NCBI GenBank assembly: GCA_045579895.1
Contig: JAZNMT010000012.1
Span: forward strand, 11,165 to 75,164
Length of the DNA: 64,000 bases
From: Paludibacteraceae bacterium
Lineage (GTDB): Bacteria; Bacteroidota; Bacteroidia; Bacteroidales; Paludibacteraceae
Direction: 5' to 3'
In this document: piece by piece, positions 55,420 to 64,000 of the stretch
How the letters are laid out: each line of letters begins with the position of its first letter
How positions within the stretch are numbered: position 1 is the stretch's first letter
Made by a program: the position numbers and the translations under genes
The notes under the pieces: model-generated
What the model was told of the DNA's origin: nothing
Seen by the model: the letters and a program-made list of their open reading frames with translations, nothing else
Database searches by the model: none

Positions 55420-55945
55420 CGGGGCCCGTCCACGAGTGCTTTCCGTTCCCTTCCACTCACTCGCACTCCGCGCCTTCTTTCTTAATGACTCCTGAATACC
55501 ATTCAGGTATTCTTGCGTTCCCGTCCTTTGTTATGCTTTGGCCAGTGGCCTGACAAATAACTTCGTCACTATCCTCTCATCTTGTCCCCCAACCATCTGT
55601 CTAGTGCTCGGCGATTTCCCGCCGAGTATCCTCGTGTTTCTATGTTTATTCTCCCGAATGGTATTCGGGTATTCCTAGAGCGGCTAGTATGGCTAGTGCT
55701 ACTACTCCCCGCCACCAGTCTTGTGCTCGCGGGGTCCCGATAACGTTTGGCGTCATGGGGCGCATTTCGCGGCTAACTCCGCGAGTTTCTCCCCGTTCTC
55801 TACCGGTCACTCCAGCATACCCGGAATTTCCGTCTCCTCCCCCTCTCCACCCGCCGAAGGCGCACACCCTCACTACGTGACACTACCTGCGCTCCGCGCA
55901 CACAACCTCGGCGAAGCCGACCTCCAGGGCACAGCCATTTTTTAG
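55420..55945 (-). ncRNA. unassigned ~0.5-kb GC-rich, hairpin-dense non-coding segment (candidate large structured RNA; strand assignment tentative)
   Basis: No ORF exceeds 75 aa in any frame. The plus strand is C/T-rich and the minus strand is G/A-rich. At least eight short GC-rich stem-loops are listed in the findings. The composition differs sharply from both flanks. Confidence 0.3.
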
Positions 55946-55957
55946 AAAATAGCGGTA

Positions 55958-55997
55958 TTATTTGCATTTATGCAAAAATTGTTGTAACTTTGCGGGC
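55958..55997 (+). promoter_or_regulatory. conserved 40-mer promoter-like module (palindromic TTTGCATttATGCAAA plus TAacTTTG), copy 1
   Basis: ttatttgcatttatgcaaaaattgttgtaactttgcgggc matches 57824-57863 at 39/40. Confidence 0.5.
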
Positions 55998-56076
55998 AAA
56001 AGAGGAAGAAATAAGAAAAATCAAAAAAACACAAATAAAATAAACTTTTTTTAAGCCCCTGACAAGTTTTAGCGTC

Positions 56077-56144: not shown

Positions 56145-56232
56145 AAAAATTGCAAAATAAGACGGTTTTGGCGAAAGAAAATTGCAAAATAAGACGGTTT
56201 AATGTGCGAAAATTTGCAAAATAAGACATTTT
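56145..56232 (+). repeat. three ~24-bp direct repeats at 32-bp spacing (iteron/operator-like) upstream of the AAA ATPase gene
   Basis: The units are aaaaattgcaaaataagacggttt, gaaaattgcaaaataagacggttt and gaaaatttgcaaaataagacatttt. The array ends about 25 nt before the TAacTTTG box at 56258. Confidence 0.8.
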
Positions 56233-57574: not shown

Positions 57575-57653
57575 ACCTTAAACATTAGACACCCTACACT
57601 TTAAACATTAAACAACTGCGGCTCCGCCGCCACACTCTACACCCTACACTCTA

Positions 57654-57818
57654 ATGTTCAGTTCTTCAAATTATTTCCAAACATTTTCCAATCGCTGATC
57701 GGATAATCTAAATTACTATCAAAGAGATTGAGCAACAAAAAGCCATATATATGCTTCAGCAGGGCGAATGACTTTCTGACTTCGATAAAGAGATAAAAAA
57801 AACTACAAGATAAATAAC
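57654..57818 (+). pseudogene. decayed, internally deleted remnant of a DUF1016/YhcG nuclease gene
   Basis: 57654-57719 aligns to 58288-58352 (the first 36 nt are identical, then it diverges). 57721-57818 aligns to 59023-59121 at more than 90%. About 670 bp of the gene body is missing. Confidence 0.75.
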
Positions 57819-57823
57819 CAATT

Positions 57824-57863
57824 TTATTTGCATTTATGCAAAAATTGTTGTATCTTTGCGGGC
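57824..57863 (+). promoter_or_regulatory. conserved 40-mer promoter-like module, copy 2 (TAtcTTTG)
   Basis: ttatttgcatttatgcaaaaattgttgtatctttgcgggc matches 55958-55997 at 39/40. Confidence 0.5.
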
Positions 57864-58025
57864 TAAATATAGAATTATGGATAGAATACAAAATCTTCAT
57901 ACTCTAGAGGAGCGAATAAAAGTCATTAGATAAATGCCGTAAGTTCTATCGTGTATATGGAATCTCGTCTACAGCGTGGACGAAATCTGACTAAAATTTA
58001 TGCAGTAAAACTCATAAAAAGAAAT

Positions 58026-59072
58026 ATGGACTTAGTGCTATCATTTAATAATTCCGCTAATCTGCTCACAGATGCAAGGCAGATCATTGATAAAACGAAG
58101 GAAATAGCGTTCCGCTCGGTAAATGTGGCCATGCTGCAACGCAATTGGTATTTGGGTAAGCGTATAAGTGAGGAAATTCTTCAGGGCGAAGATCGTGCTG
58201 AATATGGTAGTCAAGTTATTCTTCAACTCTCCAAAGAACTGACTGACATATATGGTAAGGGATTTGGTAAGAATAACTTATATCGCAATGTTCAGTTCTT
58301 CAAATTATTTCCAAACATTTTCCCAACACTGTCGGGACAATCCAAATTACTCACTTGGTCGCACTATACTTTGCTATTGTCTATCTCTAACGATGAGGCA
58401 CGAGCATGGTATGCAGACGAGGCATATCGTGAGGGGTGGAGTGTTCGCACGATGCAACGCAATATATCTTCGCAGTATTACCATCGCATGCTCCTATCGC
58501 AACATAAGGAGGGCGTGCGCGAGGAAATGAAGCAACTCACGGCTCCTATGCAAGCGGATAAGCTAGAGTTTATAAAGAATCCTGTCGTGGCAGAGTTTTT
58601 AGGGTTGGCTCCTAATAGCGATTTGTACGAGTCGAAGTTAGAGAGTGCTATTATCGCACATATCCAGAAGTTTGTAATGGAGCTTGGCAAGGGATATGCT
58701 TTCGTGGCTCGCCAGCAGCATGTTCGCACGGACATGGGGGATTTCTATATTGACTTGGTGTTCTATAATTATATCCTCAAATGCTTCTTGCTAATAGACT
58801 TGAAGACTTCTCAAATCACGCATCAGGATGTAGGACAAATGGACATGTATGTACGCATGTATGACCAACTGAAGCGTACAGAAGGCGATAATCCTACTAT
58901 TGGTCTTGTTCTATGTGCAGACACAAGTGAGGATATGGCTCGTTATTCGGTTTTGCATGAGAATCCTCAACTCTTCCAAGCCAAATATGTGCTGTATCTT
59001 CCTACGAAGGAGGAGTTAGCAAAAGAGATTGAGCAACAAAAAGCCATATATATGCTTCAGCAGGGCGAATGA
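58026..59072 (+). CDS. DUF1016 (YhcG-like) PD-(D/E)xK nuclease-family protein
   Basis: NVAMLQRNWYLGKRISEE, GFGKNNLYRNVQFF and the C-terminal core DLVFYNYILKCFLLIDLKT (D...D/E-x-K) are present. The start is uncertain: GTG 57951, ATG 57957 or ATG 58026. Confidence 0.75.
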   Translation: MDLVLSFNNSANLLTDARQIIDKTKEIAFRSVNVAMLQRNWYLGKRISEEILQGEDRAEYGSQVILQLSKELTDIYGKGFGKNNLYRNVQFFKLFPNIFPTLSGQSKLLTWSHYTLLLSISNDEARAWYADEAYREGWSVRTMQRNISSQYYHRMLLSQHKEGVREEMKQLTAPMQADKLEFIKNPVVAEFLGLAPNSDLYESKLESAIIAHIQKFVMELGKGYAFVARQQHVRTDMGDFYIDLVFYNYILKCFLLIDLKTSQITHQDVGQMDMYVRMYDQLKRTEGDNPTIGLVLCADTSEDMARYSVLHENPQLFQAKYVLYLPTKEELAKEIEQQKAIYMLQQGE

Positions 59073-59142
59073 GTTTCTGACTTCGATAAAGAGATTAATA
59101 AACTACAATCGAAATAACCAAACAAGATTGCAAAAAAATCCA

Positions 59143-59150
59143 TATTCTTG
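59143..59150 (+). promoter_or_regulatory. degenerate -7 box (TAttCTTG, context cTTGCGGGCaaaa) ahead of the candidate system operon
   Basis: It shares the ..TTGCGGGC context with the two 40-mer modules and lies about 90 nt upstream of the ATG at 59241. Confidence 0.3.
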
Positions 59151-59240
59151 CGGGCAAAAAAAATATAAATTAGATTGACTAAAAAACAAGATATATTACG
59201 CACTCTTAACTTTGCTGAAGCAAATGTTGAAGATAAAAAC

Positions 59241-61049
59241 ATGAAGCGCCTCTTTCGCGATTATACTGAGAGACGATTCTTGGTTGGGTATATTCGTCCA
59301 AAAAACCGAAAGTGGTTTAGCAAAACACATTTGTACAATGTAAGACTTGAAGATGCCAAACGCAAAGGCGGTGTAAATGATAAGAATCCATTGTCTTATG
59401 CTGTAGATTATGTTATTCTTTACAAAAATAGCAAGGAAAATAAATACAAAATATACAAGGTTGAGAAATCAGAAGTGCTTTCAATAGAAGCAATGCTACA
59501 ACTTGATTACCCTAATCCTCGTAGTGAGTATTTGGTGTTTACTTTAGGGGAGGAAGTTAAATTCGAGGATATTGACCTTAAAGTTCTGCTTGATAGTGAA
59601 TGTAAAGCAAAGCATGAACCAATTTATCTTACTGGCTATAATTTGTTTAGTTGCTATAGAAAAAAAGCATCTAAAAAAATCGGTCTTGTTGATGCTGATT
59701 TGTTATGCAATGGCACTCGCCATCCTAACTTAGCTTTACTTAAGATAGCAGGTTATTTATTTGATAATAACATTTCCTTTGAACTCATTACAGATACTAA
59801 GACAGATATAAGCCAATATACATATATCTACATGTCCCGCGTCTTTACTTTCACAGAAGAACCTACTTTCTATCTCAATGCTTCTGCTTCTGAAAAGAAA
59901 AAGTTTCGTTTAGGTGGAACTGGATATTATGCAAACGAAAAGTCTGTTTCTAAGTTTCGTCAATTGCGAGAAGAAGATATGGACAGACTAAGTCACGACG
60001 CATTTTTGAATACCCTTACTTGCAAGCATACTGGCAAACAGGGAATCAATATGGCAGTTCAAATGCCATACTATGACCTGTACAAAGAATATATTGACAG
60101 ACAAGTTGAAGCGGGATTTAAACGTGATAAATACAAAGATTACGAAAAATATTCCATTGGATTTCTTACGAGAAAATGTTTCCGTCATTGCCCATTTTGC
60201 GTAAATAAATTGGAGGATGGTGTTGTGTCGTATTCAAAACTCGAATGGTTCCACGACAAGAAACGCCCTTATGTATATTTCTGGGATGATAATTTTTTAG
60301 GAGCTCCATACCGTATATGGAGAGCGCACCTTCAGTATTTGATTGACAATAAAATATCATTCCAATTTCGTCAAGGTTTAGACGAACGGTTGCTTGCAGA
60401 AGATGAACATGGAGAAGAGATGGCACAAATGCTTAGTCGATCTCGTTACCATGGAGATTTTATATTTGCTTTTGACAATTGGAAAGACCGCGAAGTTATT
60501 GAGCGTGCATTAAAGATTTGGAAGCGCCATAATCCAAAGAAGGGAACTAAGTTCTATCTATTCTGTGGATTCATGCAGACGCAAGACAATTTTGACAAGT
60601 TCTATCGTGATATTTGGGAGTTGTTCCAACGAATTAAAATCCTCATGCAATATGGTTGTGTAGGATATGTAATGCGCCATGAGGACTACCACAAATCTCC
60701 ATTAGAGAATATCTATGTGCAAGTTGCTCGATGGTGTAATCAACAGGCGTTCTACAAGAAAATGTCTTTTTGGGAATATACTTATCGCAATCAAACATTT
60801 TGGGAAGAACAGGCTGGATTTGAAGTTCCTCAAAAATTAAAATCATTCATTGACTTTGAGCGTGACTTACAAGCAGGCTATTACGAAAAAGTGGATGTTC
60901 GAGGCAAGGTTCGAAAAATATCACGTCCTATACGAACATTATTGAATCTCTTAGAAATGTATCCACAACATAGGGAGGAGTTACTTGAAATGTTTGACTA
61001 TAAGATGTCCAATTTGGTAGATTCTACTTTATGGGAAAACAATGAATAA
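59241..61049 (+). CDS. radical-SAM superfamily enzyme (~600 aa) with an uncharacterised N-terminal domain and a Rossmann-like (B12-binding-domain-like) module
   Basis: The CxxxCxxC cluster sits in GFLTRKCFRHCPFCV, followed by VYFWDDNFLG and FRQGLDERL, as in class-B-type rSAM proteins. Upstream, IGLVDADLL...PNLALLKIAGYLFDNNISFELITD resembles their N-terminal domain. The ATG at 59241 is preferred over the TTG at 59175. Confidence 0.65.
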   Translation: MKRLFRDYTERRFLVGYIRPKNRKWFSKTHLYNVRLEDAKRKGGVNDKNPLSYAVDYVILYKNSKENKYKIYKVEKSEVLSIEAMLQLDYPNPRSEYLVFTLGEEVKFEDIDLKVLLDSECKAKHEPIYLTGYNLFSCYRKKASKKIGLVDADLLCNGTRHPNLALLKIAGYLFDNNISFELITDTKTDISQYTYIYMSRVFTFTEEPTFYLNASASEKKKFRLGGTGYYANEKSVSKFRQLREEDMDRLSHDAFLNTLTCKHTGKQGINMAVQMPYYDLYKEYIDRQVEAGFKRDKYKDYEKYSIGFLTRKCFRHCPFCVNKLEDGVVSYSKLEWFHDKKRPYVYFWDDNFLGAPYRIWRAHLQYLIDNKISFQFRQGLDERLLAEDEHGEEMAQMLSRSRYHGDFIFAFDNWKDREVIERALKIWKRHNPKKGTKFYLFCGFMQTQDNFDKFYRDIWELFQRIKILMQYGCVGYVMRHEDYHKSPLENIYVQVARWCNQQAFYKKMSFWEYTYRNQTFWEEQAGFEVPQKLKSFIDFERDLQAGYYEKVDVRGKVRKISRPIRTLLNLLEMYPQHREELLEMFDYKMSNLVDSTLWENNE

Positions 61050-61066
61050 TTATAAATCTATATACT

Positions 61067-62080
61067 ATGGCAAAATGGCAACTAACTACGCTTAATATTA
61101 GCGACATTTGTTTGGATGAAGAGAATCCTCGTATCATGCAAATTCTTGAAAATTACGTAGAGGTAAATAGCGCAATAATAGCAAATGCGCTATCTGATGA
61201 CTCAGATAATAGTTCACATACTTCATATCATTCTCTATTGGACTCAATAAAGACTAGTGGATGTATCATAAATCCGATTCATGTTAATCACGATGAACAA
61301 GGACGTTATGTCGTTATAGAAGGAAATACTCGCGTTCAAATCTACAAGGAGTTTTTAGCCAAGAATGTCCCTGGCAATTGGGAACAGATACCAGCATTAG
61401 TATATGAACAATTAGATGAATTGCAAAAACACGAAATTCGGCTGCAATCACACTTAGTGGGACCTCGTGATTGGAATCCATATTCTAAGGCTAAATATTT
61501 ACATAAATTGAGCCATTCAGGATTACCAATGAACCAAATTATCTCTATGTGCGGTGGACGTGCTTCTGAAATAAACAAATATATTCAAGCATATGAATAT
61601 ATGGAAGATTATTATCGCACATACATCAATTCTATCCCAAATATGGAATTTGACCCACAAGAATTTTCAAAGTTCTTAGAATATCAAAATTCCCGTATTC
61701 AAGGAGCGATACGTCGCAAGGGCTATGAAGATAATCAGTTTGCTAAGTGGGTCGCAGATGGCAATGTTGATAAAGCAATGGCTGTTCGTCGTATTCCTGA
61801 TGTGTTAAAAAACGAAGAAGCTCATAAAGTTTTTGTTAAACAAAATTTGACAGAAGCCGAGAAAGTTTTGCATGCTGCTGAATTGATGACTACTGATCTA
61901 AGTGAATATCCATATGAAAAACTAGCTCAAGAACTTCGTATAAAGTTAGATAATTTAGCCGCCACTGAAATAAAACTATTGGCTACAAAAGAATCACATA
62001 TTGAGAAAAGAGAAATTTTGGAGTTGCTTAAATCAAAGTTAGATTTCATTATTGAAACAATGATGGAAATGGAGGACTAA
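61067..62080 (+). CDS. ParB/Srx-fold N-terminal domain protein with helical C-terminal region
   Basis: ISDICLDEENPRI and NPIHV...GRYVVIEGNTRVQIY match the ParB-like nuclease/NTPase domain motifs. It starts 18 nt after the upstream stop. Confidence 0.6.
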   Translation: MAKWQLTTLNISDICLDEENPRIMQILENYVEVNSAIIANALSDDSDNSSHTSYHSLLDSIKTSGCIINPIHVNHDEQGRYVVIEGNTRVQIYKEFLAKNVPGNWEQIPALVYEQLDELQKHEIRLQSHLVGPRDWNPYSKAKYLHKLSHSGLPMNQIISMCGGRASEINKYIQAYEYMEDYYRTYINSIPNMEFDPQEFSKFLEYQNSRIQGAIRRKGYEDNQFAKWVADGNVDKAMAVRRIPDVLKNEEAHKVFVKQNLTEAEKVLHAAELMTTDLSEYPYEKLAQELRIKLDNLAATEIKLLATKESHIEKREILELLKSKLDFIIETMMEMED

Positions 62081-62496
62081 TGGCAGAATCCCTTAATCAT
62101 ATAACCTATGTAAAAAGGATTGTTGAGTATGCGAAGGACATACCCTCTGCTTTTATTCCTAGTTGCTTACTAGCCGATCTTCCAGATTTTCCAGAACGTC
62201 CTATAGCAACGCTCGATGGATATATTCCAGATGTATTATATAACGATTCACATACAATAATCATTGGTGAAGCCAAAACTATTCGAGATGTTGAAAATGA
62301 CCATACGGAACGTCAGATTAATAGTTACATAGATGAGGTCAGATGTCACAAAGGAACTCGTCATATTGTGATTTGCTCAAATGCATTATCATTTTCGCAC
62401 ATTAAAAATATGATTGTTCGTAAAAAGATGCGTGAGAATATTTCGGATATAAGTTTTCATATTTTAGACAACATATATAAAGTGGCTGTTATATGA
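62080..62496 (+). CDS. small PD-(D/E)xK (restriction-endonuclease-like) protein
   Basis: The 138 aa ORF reads GYIPDVLYNDSHTIIIGEAKT, which gives a PD...ExK arrangement. Its start overlaps the upstream stop (TAATG). Confidence 0.5.
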   Translation: MAESLNHITYVKRIVEYAKDIPSAFIPSCLLADLPDFPERPIATLDGYIPDVLYNDSHTIIIGEAKTIRDVENDHTERQINSYIDEVRCHKGTRHIVICSNALSFSHIKNMIVRKKMRENISDISFHILDNIYKVAVI

Positions 62497-63962
62497 GCAA
62501 TATAAGATACAATACTGTTTATAATTTATCAGCTAAACTTAATGCGTTTAAGTATCAGCACGAGGCTTTCCTTGAAATTAAGGATAAACCATATGCTGCT
62601 ATTTTCCATGAACAGGGATTAGGAAAGACTAAAATAGCCATTGATTTACTTCTATATTGGCTGTCTTCTTGTGATGTGGATACTGTTATGGTTGTAACTA
62701 AAAAGACACTTGTCCCCAATTGGGTGGATGAGTTTGCAACACATACGAATCTTCGTCCTAAAGTAATGAATAATAGCAAGGGTAATAATTATTATATTCT
62801 TAATAGTCCAGTTCGCACCATTATTACAAATTTCGAAACTATTTCTGGAGAAAAAGAGAGGATTGAGAGATTTTTGAAAACAAGAAATGTTGCTATTATT
62901 ATTGATGAATCTGCAAAAATCAAAAACCCTGATTCAAAACTTACCCAAGACTTCTTATATCTTGCACCTCTGTTCTACAGAAAAGTTATAATGTCAGGAA
63001 CTCCTGTAGCAAATCGTCCTTATGATATATGGTCTCAAATATATTTTCTTGATTTAGGTGAAAGCCTTGGTACTGACTTTGCCTCTTTTAAGCATACATG
63101 CGATTTGTCAAATGATTTAGTTCATAATACAGAAAGAAAGGAACTTTTTGAAGACAATGTATCTAAAATCTTTGATAAAATTCGCTCGTTTACCGTTCGA
63201 GAAACAAAGAATAGTGGTATAATAACTTTACCATCAAAAATTTATCATGACGTTTATATCGCTTTTGAAAATCAACAACAAATGATGTATAAACAGATAC
63301 AAAACGAAATGACCATTCTGCTCAAACAAGGTGATGAGACAATTTTGGATGAGTCTTCAGATACCATTAAAAGACTTTTGCGATTAGTACAAGTTACTTC
63401 CAATCCTAAATTGTTAGACGAAGCATATGAAGGTCCATCTGCAAAGGAGATGCTTCTTGATAGACTTATAACGCAAATCATCGAACGCAATGAAAAAGCT
63501 ATTGTTTGGAGTAGTTTTACGGGAAATATTGATGAGTTCTGCAAAAAATACAAACATTTAAATGCTGTAAAAATTACGGGAAAGATGAGTACAGAAGACC
63601 GTATTCGCTCTGTTAAAGCATTCAAAGAAGGTAATGCATGTTTGCTTTTTGCTACTCCACAGTCGGCAAAAGAGGGCTTAACATTAACTGTTGCCAATAA
63701 CGCTATTTTCTATGATAGAGGATTTAATCTCGACGATTACTTACAAGCTCAAGATAGAATACATCGTATCTCGCAAAAAAAAGATTGCAATATTTACAAC
63801 CTTTTGATTGAAGATAGTATTGATATATGGGTTGATTACTTGCTCAAAGCAAAACAACAAGCAGCTTTTCTGGCTCAAGGTGATATTAGCAAAGAAGAAT
63901 ATCAGAAAAATGCGGATTATTCTTTTGCTCAAATTGTTCAGGAAATTTTAAAAACTAATTAA
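62493..63962 (+). CDS. compact SNF2-family helicase/translocase
   Basis: Motif I is HEQGLGKT, motif II is IIIDESAKIKN, motif III is MSGTPVANRPYDIW and motifs V/VI are TPQSAKEGLTLT...QAQDRIHRISQ. An ATGA overlap joins it to the upstream gene. Confidence 0.85.
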   Translation: MSNIRYNTVYNLSAKLNAFKYQHEAFLEIKDKPYAAIFHEQGLGKTKIAIDLLLYWLSSCDVDTVMVVTKKTLVPNWVDEFATHTNLRPKVMNNSKGNNYYILNSPVRTIITNFETISGEKERIERFLKTRNVAIIIDESAKIKNPDSKLTQDFLYLAPLFYRKVIMSGTPVANRPYDIWSQIYFLDLGESLGTDFASFKHTCDLSNDLVHNTERKELFEDNVSKIFDKIRSFTVRETKNSGIITLPSKIYHDVYIAFENQQQMMYKQIQNEMTILLKQGDETILDESSDTIKRLLRLVQVTSNPKLLDEAYEGPSAKEMLLDRLITQIIERNEKAIVWSSFTGNIDEFCKKYKHLNAVKITGKMSTEDRIRSVKAFKEGNACLLFATPQSAKEGLTLTVANNAIFYDRGFNLDDYLQAQDRIHRISQKKDCNIYNLLIEDSIDIWVDYLLKAKQQAAFLAQGDISKEEYQKNADYSFAQIVQEILKTN

Positions 63963-63963
63963 T

Positions 63964-64000
63964 ATGGAAAGCAGAAAGACTACAATGACTATCGGTAAAC
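63964..64000 (+). CDS. 5' end of a further operon gene (truncated by the window edge)
   Basis: An ATG lies 1 nt after the SNF2 stop. MESRKTTMTIGK... remains open to the end of the window. Confidence 0.4.
   Translation, partial: MESRKTTMTIGK

Follow-up and report, generated by a model that had tools for sequence, protein, structure and literature searches.

What does a predicted radical S-adenosylmethionine (SAM) enzyme do at the head of an operon whose other genes are predicted to encode ParB-like proteins, a small nuclease and a SNF2 motor? The question is raised by one end of a 64,000-nucleotide (nt) stretch of a Paludibacteraceae genome (GenBank assembly GCA_045579895.1, contig JAZNMT010000012.1, positions 11,165 to 75,164 of the forward strand), which we call the window. 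The lead gene, O1 (ORF1), opens a cassette that, according to a preliminary description made from the sequence alone, might be a new modification-plus-restriction module or an immunity module based on nucleotide chemistry. From comparisons of sequences and structural models, we see about an even chance that the cassette operates in the manner of restriction-modification, with an unusual enzyme as writer.

The lead gene and its partners

The cassette comprises same-strand open reading frames (ORFs) packed as described before. On the forward strand, O1 (59175-61049; 624 amino acids (aa); TTG start) is followed by O2 (ORF2, 61067-62080; 337 aa), O3 (ORF3, 62080-62496; 138 aa), O4 (ORF4, 62493-63962; 489 aa) and O5 (ORF5, 63964-64000), of which the window holds the first 12 codons (MESRKTTMTIGK), the remainder of its 328 aa lying past the edge. 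The preliminary description is right about the TAATG overlap at 62080, the ATGA overlap at 62493-62496, the 1-nt gap at 63963 and the peptide motifs that it cites; the gap between O1 and O2 exists but measures 17 nt, not 18. Contigs encoding a SNF2 protein identical to O4 carried the sequence past 64000: the start of O5 equals the beginning of L001:11472-12458, and a sixth gene, O6 (L001:12458-14095; 545 aa), lies 3' of O5 and is translationally coupled to it. The five ORFs already described are therefore part of a six-gene operon with the order O1-ParB-nuclease-SNF2-ParB-O6. Upstream of O1, the TAnnTTTG-like box (59143-59150, forward strand), a promoter-like element of the Bacteroidetes -7 type, reads TATTCTTG; it is present with one mismatch, by direct reading of the sequence, and at the orthologous position L001 has the perfect TAACTTTG, then GCGGG. 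The box is a degenerate copy of a promoter module repeated at 55958-56001 and 57824-57867. The TTG start of O1 is supported by conservation of the N-terminus in L001, which has ATG at the equivalent codon, and in P0182, a protein discussed below.

O1 consists of a PUA-like domain (aa 1-160), a flavodoxin/B12-binding-like domain (about aa 166-295) and a radical-SAM-like core (about aa 296-565), with the conserved core of the family spanning residues ~167-565. On indirect evidence, we regard it as a divergent radical-SAM-type enzyme with an N-terminal flavodoxin/B12-binding-like domain, because of its cysteines, the Pfam matches of its relatives, a PHROG match and the structures that its model resembles. 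The CxxxCxxC motif (60177-60200, forward strand; CFRHCPFC; C335, C339 and C342), predicted to supply the ligands of a [4Fe-4S]/SAM cluster, is invariant in the O1 alignment A1, at least 90% conserved in the diverse alignment A2 and found in 65 of 65 full-length homologues from the fetched loci; an invariant DDN motif (aa 371-373) lies C-terminal of the cluster loop. PF04055 is matched by 6 of 28 diverse relatives on their own (best 2.3e-5), and O1 aligns with 294 of the 305 positions of phrog_9298, a 'radical SAM domain protein' family (3.4e-35). In Foldseek, the AlphaFold (AF2) model (predicted local distance difference test score (pLDDT) 76) returned MiaB at the top (7mjz; E = 5.3e-4, 409 columns), then AprD4 and lipoyl synthases (LIAS), so the best core matches are radical-SAM structures. 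The earlier radical-SAM assignment is thus supported, though indirectly, by motif, relatives, PHROG and Foldseek; direct searches of Pfam, NCBIfam, PADLOC and PDB sequences do not recognise ORF1 as radical SAM.

With MiaB, AprD4 and lipoyl synthase, O1 shares an N-terminal flavodoxin-like domain and a CxxxCxxC core. It differs from MiaB-type enzymes in sequence similarity below the Pfam threshold, in a flavodoxin-like domain devoid of conserved auxiliary-cluster cysteines (A2), in having no TRAM domain and in a context that is DNA-directed or defensive, not one of tRNA or antibiotic biosynthesis. The family is large, with 989 clusters at 50% identity (E <= 1e-3) and more than 4300 word-filtered matches that have no Pfam domain and for which the sole name given is 'hypothetical protein'. 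A typical relative has ~470 aa, and the PUA-like N-domain is limited to forms of ~624 aa.

O2 and O5 are ParB/Srx-type proteins with intact nucleotide-binding motifs, and are paralogues at 28% identity (E = 4e-15). O2 matches Pfam ParB_N at 5.6e-4 with 20.3 bits, under the cut-off of 26.3, and aligns in its N-terminal region only with the PADLOC models PDC-M38A (1e-8) and PD-Lambda-5_A (3e-6); ParB-like PHROG families are matched by O2 and O5. Residues D17, N20-P21-R22 and E85-G-N-T-R89 of O2 are invariant over 11 orthologues, and the NPR and EGN(T/S)R boxes, the latter EGNSR in O5, are invariant in 11-12 orthologues of each paralogue, which upholds the ParB-like call on ORF2 despite the sub-threshold Pfam score. 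O3, a stand-alone candidate nuclease, carries a full PD-(D/E)xK set with the QxxxY of the RecB/Cas4 type: E3, P50-D51, G63-E-A-K-T67, D70, H75 and Q79...Y83 are invariant in alignment A3 (10 orthologues, 24-49% identical), in agreement with the nuclease assignment first proposed. Neither O3 in Pfam, PADLOC, PHROGs and PDB sequences nor its own profile against PDB sequences gave a match. O4 is firmly assigned by sequence as a bare SNF2 motor, a minimal SNF2-family ATPase/translocase, as had been claimed: it matches SNF2-rel_dom (PF00176, 1.9e-26), Helicase_C (PF00271, 5.5e-17) and ResIII (3.3e-9), displays the motifs GLGKT, DESAKIKN and QAQDRIHRISQ, and among PADLOC models aligns to helicase cores only, those of ZorD (4.8e-38) and DpdE (1.7e-35).

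In the model of O6 (pLDDT 81), a novel helical N-domain of ~225 aa (O6N) is followed by a beta-rich middle and by a C-terminal homologue of the sulfur-binding domain (SBD). In Foldseek, the middle matches B3 domains, both those of plant factors and those of restriction enzymes (NgoAVII, LlaJI and UbaLAI). The C-terminus matches SBD with E = 6e-5 and a template-modelling (TM) score of 0.72, and positions 384-518 of profile A4 align with chain residues 8-141 of SBD_Hga (8h0l; E = 3.3e-6); together these point to homology, at fold level, with the sulfur-binding domain of Hga and ScoMcrA. An SBD within O6N was considered and dropped, since the sequence-profile alignment places it at the O6 C-terminus; the SBD fold is a generic winged helix-turn-helix (wHTH; PMC10853773). 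O6N also occurs as a C-terminal fusion partner of the radical-SAM core, in many relatives of ~650-700 aa (BLASTP ~1e-12; hidden Markov model searches 1e-35 to 1e-63).

The sixth gene is modular. Versions found in the same operon comprise O6N alone, B3+SBD, sigma-70 regions 2-4, or a LexA-type S24 peptidase, exemplified by 790-aa O6N + sigma-70 region 2-4 proteins, some with a KOW motif (L086 8001-10373), and a 396-aa O6N + LexA-type S24 protein (L089 8001-9191). The sigma-70 and S24 versions hint that the output of the system may in some cases be transcriptional or linked to SOS.

O1 in other operons and in phages

We scanned one genome per species with alignment A1, a sample skewed toward closer relatives, and obtained 79 O1 loci, mainly from gut and rumen Bacteroidales; further hosts are Akkermansia, Lachnospiraceae, Selenomonadaceae, Kiritimatiellia and Saccharibacteria. 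Neighbour clustering, combined with Pfam and PADLOC scans, defined the operon types. At least four conserved types (A, B, C and D) begin with O1, the sole gene common to all four. Type A is that of the window and comprises ~20 loci (L001-L007, L009, L040, L043, L045, L046, L052, L055, L057, L058, L065, L070 and L086-L089), mostly with short O1, at 24-60% protein identity. The arrangement is not due to chance, because the same order recurs in ~20 independent loci of several Bacteroidales lineages, which bears out the gene-order conservation that the preliminary description had left to be checked.

The other types pair O1 with modules that carry familiar names. Type B (for example L013 9842-21405) consists of O1, a NERD/superfamily 1 helicase, a ~790-aa protein without matches (c2), DrmA (9e-173) and DrmB; it terminates at DrmB, beyond which the genes vary. 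In type C (L028 9938-19734), O1 precedes DndF (2e-90), DndG (6e-45) and DndH (1060 bits), and in type D (L010 10001-16777) an O6N-only protein, PbeA (7e-203) and a PbeC/DndD-like ATPase. All operons of types A and D contain O6N. When 141 neighbour ORFs of types B and C were pooled and scanned with Pfam, no methyltransferase, 3'-phosphoadenosine-5'-phosphosulfate (PAPS) reductase, DndB/E or desulfurase appeared among the families with at least two members; the families around these types are those usual in defence islands and mobile elements, namely Schlafen/AlbA_2, AbiEii, Abi_2, Fic, HipA, DUF4143, DUF1016 and integrases. Because O1 sequences from the four types interleave in the similarity tree, with identities of up to 92% between types B and C, 84% between A and B and 83% between A and C, O1 appears to be an exchangeable front-end for very different DNA-scanning back-ends. 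Near-identity of O1 with such different partners makes a DNA mark more plausible than specific protein contacts.

Small genes often lie directly 5' of short O1, encoding an 80-aa XRE-type helix-turn-helix (HTH) protein (c16), a 169-aa wHTH protein (c17) or 91-115-aa proteins without matches (c13, c28); such genes (e.g. L048 256-498, L016 9148-10000) may be regulators of the operons. One cultured bacterium, Prevotella sp. tc2-28 (L015), carries a type C operon (O1 + DndFGH).

The PUA-like N-domain of O1 (59175-59654, forward strand) is a predicted reader of modified nucleic acid, and it connects the cassette with a methyltransferase. ASCH and YTH domains are PUA-like readers of modified bases. 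A Foldseek search with the N-domain matched ZmASCH (5y6b; E = 1.4e-3, TM 0.49-0.50) and the YTH domain of YTHDF2. By sequence, the domain shares 52% identity (E = 3e-49) with the N-terminus of P0182, a protein in which a D12-class N6-adenine DNA methyltransferase of the Dam class (7e-56) is fused to this domain. The gene for P0182 opens an operon with a 765-aa DndB and a SWI2/SNF2 helicase, immediately 3' of a DUF1016 gene (L090/L091); the contigs are short and may hold only part of the operon. We read this operon as the methyltransferase-based counterpart of the window arrangement. The two have in common the N-domain, its lead position, a ParB-superfamily protein followed by a superfamily 2 helicase, and a DUF1016 nuclease gene immediately upstream. 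They differ in the catalytic domain, which is a D12 N6-adenine methyltransferase there and radical SAM in O1, and the DndB and helicase have no BLASTP similarity to O2 and O4. A 344-aa gene of L091 was rejected as a component of the system, having by eye the look of an HUH (IS200/RAYT-type) transposase with a PDHLHVIL motif.

A homologue search with the N-domain alone returned mostly short fragments, and their contexts yielded L121, L122 and L123. A DUF1016/YhcG gene lies directly 5' of the gene with the PUA-like N-domain in the window (57951-59072), L090 (89-1231), L122 (4831-5946) and L123 (1961-3076); the next gene codes for the radical-SAM-type O1 in the window, for the Dam-methyltransferase fusion in L090 and, in L122 and L123, for a 148-aa stand-alone protein. 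Between the window and L090, DUF1016 protein identity is just 26%. L121 (366-8987) holds a type B (DISARM-like) operon in which O1 with the PUA-like N-domain is called as two ORFs (96 + 515 aa), possibly through a frameshift or a split gene; preceding it is a 648-aa HARE-HTH + DpnI_C protein with the architecture of a methyl-adenine reader.

Phages carry O1 homologues (phrog_9298) without restriction partners, in regions of replication, recombination and modification genes (L115 6004-7128, L116 5983-7293, L117 5004-5921 and L118 3995-4909). DNA methyltransferase genes lie near the orphan in 4 of 6 phages inspected, among them the Bacteroides phages LoVEphage and BKO1-TP3 and the Oscillospiraceae phage NatCom_21982, in which the two genes overlap; in a Methanomassiliicoccales virus, the homologue adjoins a ParB-like gene. 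Genes near the phage copies include DNA methyltransferases, PAPS reductase or ParB-like genes. Orphan copies next to methyltransferases show the pattern of protective modification enzymes.

A predicted writer and its alternatives

In the mechanism that we propose, O1 would install a covalent mark on host DNA by 5'-deoxyadenosyl-radical chemistry, with its PUA-like reader domain and O6 providing targeting or assistance. Scanning DNA and cutting it where unmarked would fall to the SNF2 translocase, the small nuclease and the two ParB-like NTPases, and the SBD and B3 domains of O6 would read the mark or the site, sparing self DNA. The strongest argument for a mark writer is economy: near-identical O1 proteins serve DndFGH, DrmAB, Pbe-like and ParB/SNF2 modules that have no other common component and that all interrogate DNA. 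Modules of this kind normally rely on a modification partner, and O1 alone is present in all four types. The exchange of the O1 N-domain with a Dam methyltransferase at the same lead position also speaks for a writer, as do, by their predicted domains, the fusion of O6N to the radical-SAM core and the DNA-binding B3 and SBD domains of O6. The origin of most loci in gut and rumen anaerobes fits an oxygen-labile Fe-S enzyme, and the defence-island setting and recent transfer of the cassette, described below, count in favour of the proposal as well. The modification-plus-restriction idea has in this way gained comparative support from the O1-led DndFGH, DrmAB and Pbe-like modules, the Dam N-domain swap and the phage orphans, its function being predicted.

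Leads as to the chemistry of the mark are speculative and point to a backbone (phosphorothioate-like) or an adenine modification. The former is suggested by the SBD homologue, the DndFGH and Pbe partners and the sulfur-inserting MiaB and LIAS as structural matches; the latter by the N-domain held in common with a Dam methyltransferase and by its YTH-like fold. Either would be a chemistry new to prokaryotic epigenetics, namely a phosphorothioate (PT)-like backbone made without DndABCDE, SspABCD or BrxP and read by the SBD of O6, or radical C-H functionalisation of adenine. Tentatively, and at somewhat less than an even chance, we extend the proposal to the whole O1 family as an unrecognised group of radical-SAM DNA-modifying enzymes that provides the self-mark for DndFGH, DrmAB, Pbe-like and ParB/SNF2/nuclease modules and that phages have captured as an orphan counter.

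The reader-type domains admit the opposite polarity. In a modification-dependent (type IV-like) system or an eraser, they would recognise modified invader DNA and the radical-SAM enzyme would be the effector, damaging DNA or stripping protective phage modifications for SNF2/nuclease, DndFGH or DrmAB. Three such domains (PUA-like, SBD and B3) occur in the system, modification-dependent nucleases such as ScoMcrA and EVE-HNH typically bear SBD or PUA-family domains (PMC10853773), and O2 and O5 resemble the ParB-like N-termini of PD-Lambda-5_A models. An orphan phage O1 beside phage methyltransferases, however, suits a protective writer and not a host effector, and the N-domain is shared with a Dam methyltransferase, itself a writer. 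Moreover, most O1 proteins have no PUA-like domain, the SBD is restricted to one O6 subfamily, and DndFGH and DrmAB are not known to need a helper of this sort. We consider this explanation unlikely.

A second alternative concerns the product of O1. To our knowledge, the radical-SAM enzymes with shown defence roles are only the prokaryotic viperins and Ophion OpnA, which have no known DNA self-mark. O1 could likewise make a small molecule, a viperin-like nucleotide analogue or a signal, with the downstream proteins acting independently or responding to it. That viperins and OpnA (10.1101/2025.09.30.679545) act without such a mark lends this idea some credit, and the fusions of O6N to sigma-70 or S24 could suit a ligand-responsive regulator. 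Yet O1 matched no viperin or OpnA model in PADLOC (2023 release, which OpnA may post-date), its operons have no nucleotide-kinase or phosphoribosyltransferase (PRTase) partners, and O1 is fused to nucleic-acid-associated domains (PUA-like, O6N). Besides O1, no gene, and so no candidate sensor, is common to the DndFGH, DrmAB and ParB/SNF2 sets, and the composition of Ophion (radical SAM + PHP + PRTase) is unrelated to that of the window operon. Immunity by nucleotide chemistry, the other proposal of the preliminary description, is hence less supported, and we rate it as very unlikely.

Several points weigh against O1 as the writer of a DNA mark. We know of no radical-SAM enzyme that writes a DNA self-mark. 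Membership of ORF1 in that superfamily is itself indicated indirectly and with modest structural scores: ORF1 has zero matches in Pfam, NCBIfam, PADLOC and phmmer against PDB sequences, the family profile A2 has none against PDB sequences, the Foldseek TM-scores with radical-SAM structures are low (0.27-0.35) and the cysteine loop is modelled at low confidence. On either side of each locus ~10 kb were inspected, so modification genes may lie elsewhere in those genomes, and occasional methyltransferases may exist below the two-member limit of the neighbour Pfam table. DndFGH has been argued to be stand-alone, without a modification partner (PMC10853773), which weakens the argument from an empty modification slot. 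The PUA-like, SBD and B3 domains would fit a modification-dependent system equally well, and the sigma-70 and LexA-type S24 variants of O6 hint at a regulatory role that the writer model leaves unexplained.

Known systems, the island and what a new writer would mean

No PADLOC, Pfam or NCBIfam model and no literature that we found describes the six-gene set. As anticipated, no named system emerged, PADLOC giving only domain-level matches (helicase cores of ZorD and DpdE, ParB-like N-termini of PD-Lambda-5_A and PDC-M38A). Closest in logic are Dpd and Dnd, the gene set being unmatched and the predicted writer unprecedented.

Dpd, in which DpdA/B/C modify DNA with 7-deazaguanine and DpdD-K restrict, has like the proposed system a DNA-modifying enzyme, a ParB-like protein (DpdB) and a SNF2-type helicase (DpdE, to whose core O4 aligns), and combines a non-methyl DNA mark with motor-driven restriction. 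Unlike Dpd, the window operon has no match to a model of the tRNA-guanine transglycosylase (TGT)-like DpdA, of DpdB or of DpdC and no genes for preQ0 synthesis; its predicted writer is a radical-SAM-type protein of ~470-620 aa unrelated to QueE; and O4 has 489 aa against ~1000 or more in DpdE. Dpd in turn has no counterparts of the O3 nuclease, the second ParB-like gene and O6. Likeness to the phosphorothioate systems Dnd (DndABCDE-DndFGH), Ssp (SspABCD-SspE) and Pbe (DndCDEA-PbeABCD) lies in the O1 homologues directly 5' of full DndFGH and PbeA/PbeC-like modules, in a ParB-superfamily protein, which Dnd systems also possess (DndB; PMC10853773), and in the O6 C-terminal domain, homologous by fold and profile to the SBD of PT-reading nucleases (ScoMcrA, Hga). 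However, no DndA-E, SspA-D or BrxP (PAPS reductase) is found in the six genes or near the operons, and O1 is unrelated to DndC/SspD.

DISARM (DrmA, DrmB and DrmC with DrmD/DrmE and a DrmM methyltransferase) is approached by the type B relatives, which have DrmA and DrmB behind O1, by a weak similarity of O4 to the SNF2 protein DrmD (1.8e-11) and by a common occurrence in defence islands; it differs in that the window operon has no DrmA, DrmB or DrmC and type B operons have no recognisable DrmM methyltransferase. Of Zorya, only the ZorD helicase core aligns with O4 (residues 460-879 of a 908-position model), with no match to ZorA, ZorB or ZorC. O2 covers just the first ~90-200 positions of the 450-715-position PD-Lambda-5 and PDC-M38 models, and no other component of these systems is matched.

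By its neighbours, the cassette lies in a defence island. The upstream genes are the DUF4143 ATPase and the DUF1016/YhcG nuclease named before, now supported by Pfam and by matches to the PADLOC candidates PDC-S01 and PDC-S02, and the AT-richness noted by eye is borne out by a GC content of 0.33-0.38 over 56-64 kb against 0.485-0.489 over 52-56 kb. The cassette (window 59184-64000) is 97.8% identical to L001/L009, and its closest named records are Paludibacteraceae metagenome-assembled genomes; the nearest common housekeeping genes are ~76% identical and lie at a different distance. This difference argues that the six genes are a unit that recently moved between related Paludibacteraceae. Genes 3' of O6 differ among contigs (AbiH, Fic, RhuM and others), and 5' of the cassette other contigs have a wHTH protein and a metallophosphatase (PDC-M21A, PDC-S10) in place of DUF4143/DUF1016. 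Judged from these comparisons, the setting is a defence island and the cassette a horizontally mobile one.

Mobility raises a further explanation, that the genes form a module for mobile-element maintenance, partition or epigenetic regulation, not immunity, in which the ParB-like proteins load on DNA, the SNF2 protein remodels and O6, in some versions a sigma factor, controls transcription. Two ParB-like genes, the recent transfer of the cassette, the sigma-70 region 2-4 and LexA-like variants of O6 and the promoter/operator repeats in the flanks accord with it. Nevertheless, no gene for an integrase, a relaxase or replication accompanies the cassette, and the flanks vary by genome and hold other defence candidates (PDC-S01, PDC-S02, PDC-M21A, PDC-S10, AbiH, Fic, RhuM). 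Elsewhere the same lead gene is paired with restriction modules (DndFGH, PbeA/PbeC) and with homologues of DrmA/DrmB, and the catalytic nuclease motifs of O3 are conserved. A role outside immunity thus seems to us distinctly improbable.

The island contains repeats of its own. A 44-nt promoter/operator-like module, TTATTTGCATTTATGCAAAAATTGTTGTA(A/T)CTTTGCGGGC, occurs in 95% identical copies at 55958-56001, before the DUF4143 gene, and 57824-57867, before the DUF1016 gene, and matches the sequence immediately 5' of ORF1 in L001 (6627-6665). It contains a TAnnTTTG box and the palindrome TTTGCATTTATGCAAA, of which the window has two exact copies against 0.14 expected; a degenerate copy, TTGCGGGCAAAA, stands before ORF1 at 59148-59159. 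Recurrence of the module before DUF4143, DUF1016 and the L001 ORF1 suggests that cassettes were inserted or exchanged at a common regulatory module. Just 5' of the intact DUF1016 gene, 57653-57801 is a remnant of an internally deleted DUF1016 gene, composed of a 65-nt piece (88%, against 58287-58351) and an 81-nt piece (96%, against 59022-59102, including the stop codon and downstream tail), and is a scar that duplication or recombination left in the island. The leader of the DUF4143 ATPase gene (56146-56232) contains a 23-nt unit, AAAATTGCAAAATAAGACGGTTT, three times, one every 32 nt; the array could be operator or iteron-like. A GC-rich non-coding stretch (55420-55945) separates the last housekeeping gene from the island; the ORFs called there look spurious, no tRNA and no Rfam family matched, and a 22-nt exact segment (55592-55613) is shared with the region 5' of the cassette in L001 (6348-6369).

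Should O1 prove to write a DNA mark, no radical-SAM enzyme before it would have been shown to set a genomic self/non-self mark, and it would define a modular writer for at least four restriction back-ends. Very often, DndFGH modules occur with no DndABCDE (PMC10853773), and our comparison adds DrmA/DrmB modules that have no recognisable methyltransferase; such a writer, encoded immediately 5' of both in these gut and rumen anaerobes, would help to explain this published puzzle. There is a substantial chance that the family represents a new DNA-modification chemistry. The O1 family is large and, in the protein databases searched, bears neither a Pfam domain nor a functional name; the cultured carrier Prevotella sp. 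tc2-28 makes the question directly testable. If O1 is such a writer, a new DNA modification is predicted in abundant gut and rumen Bacteroidales and their phages, with a bearing on phage host range, transformation barriers in Bacteroides and Prevotella and modification-aware metagenomics.

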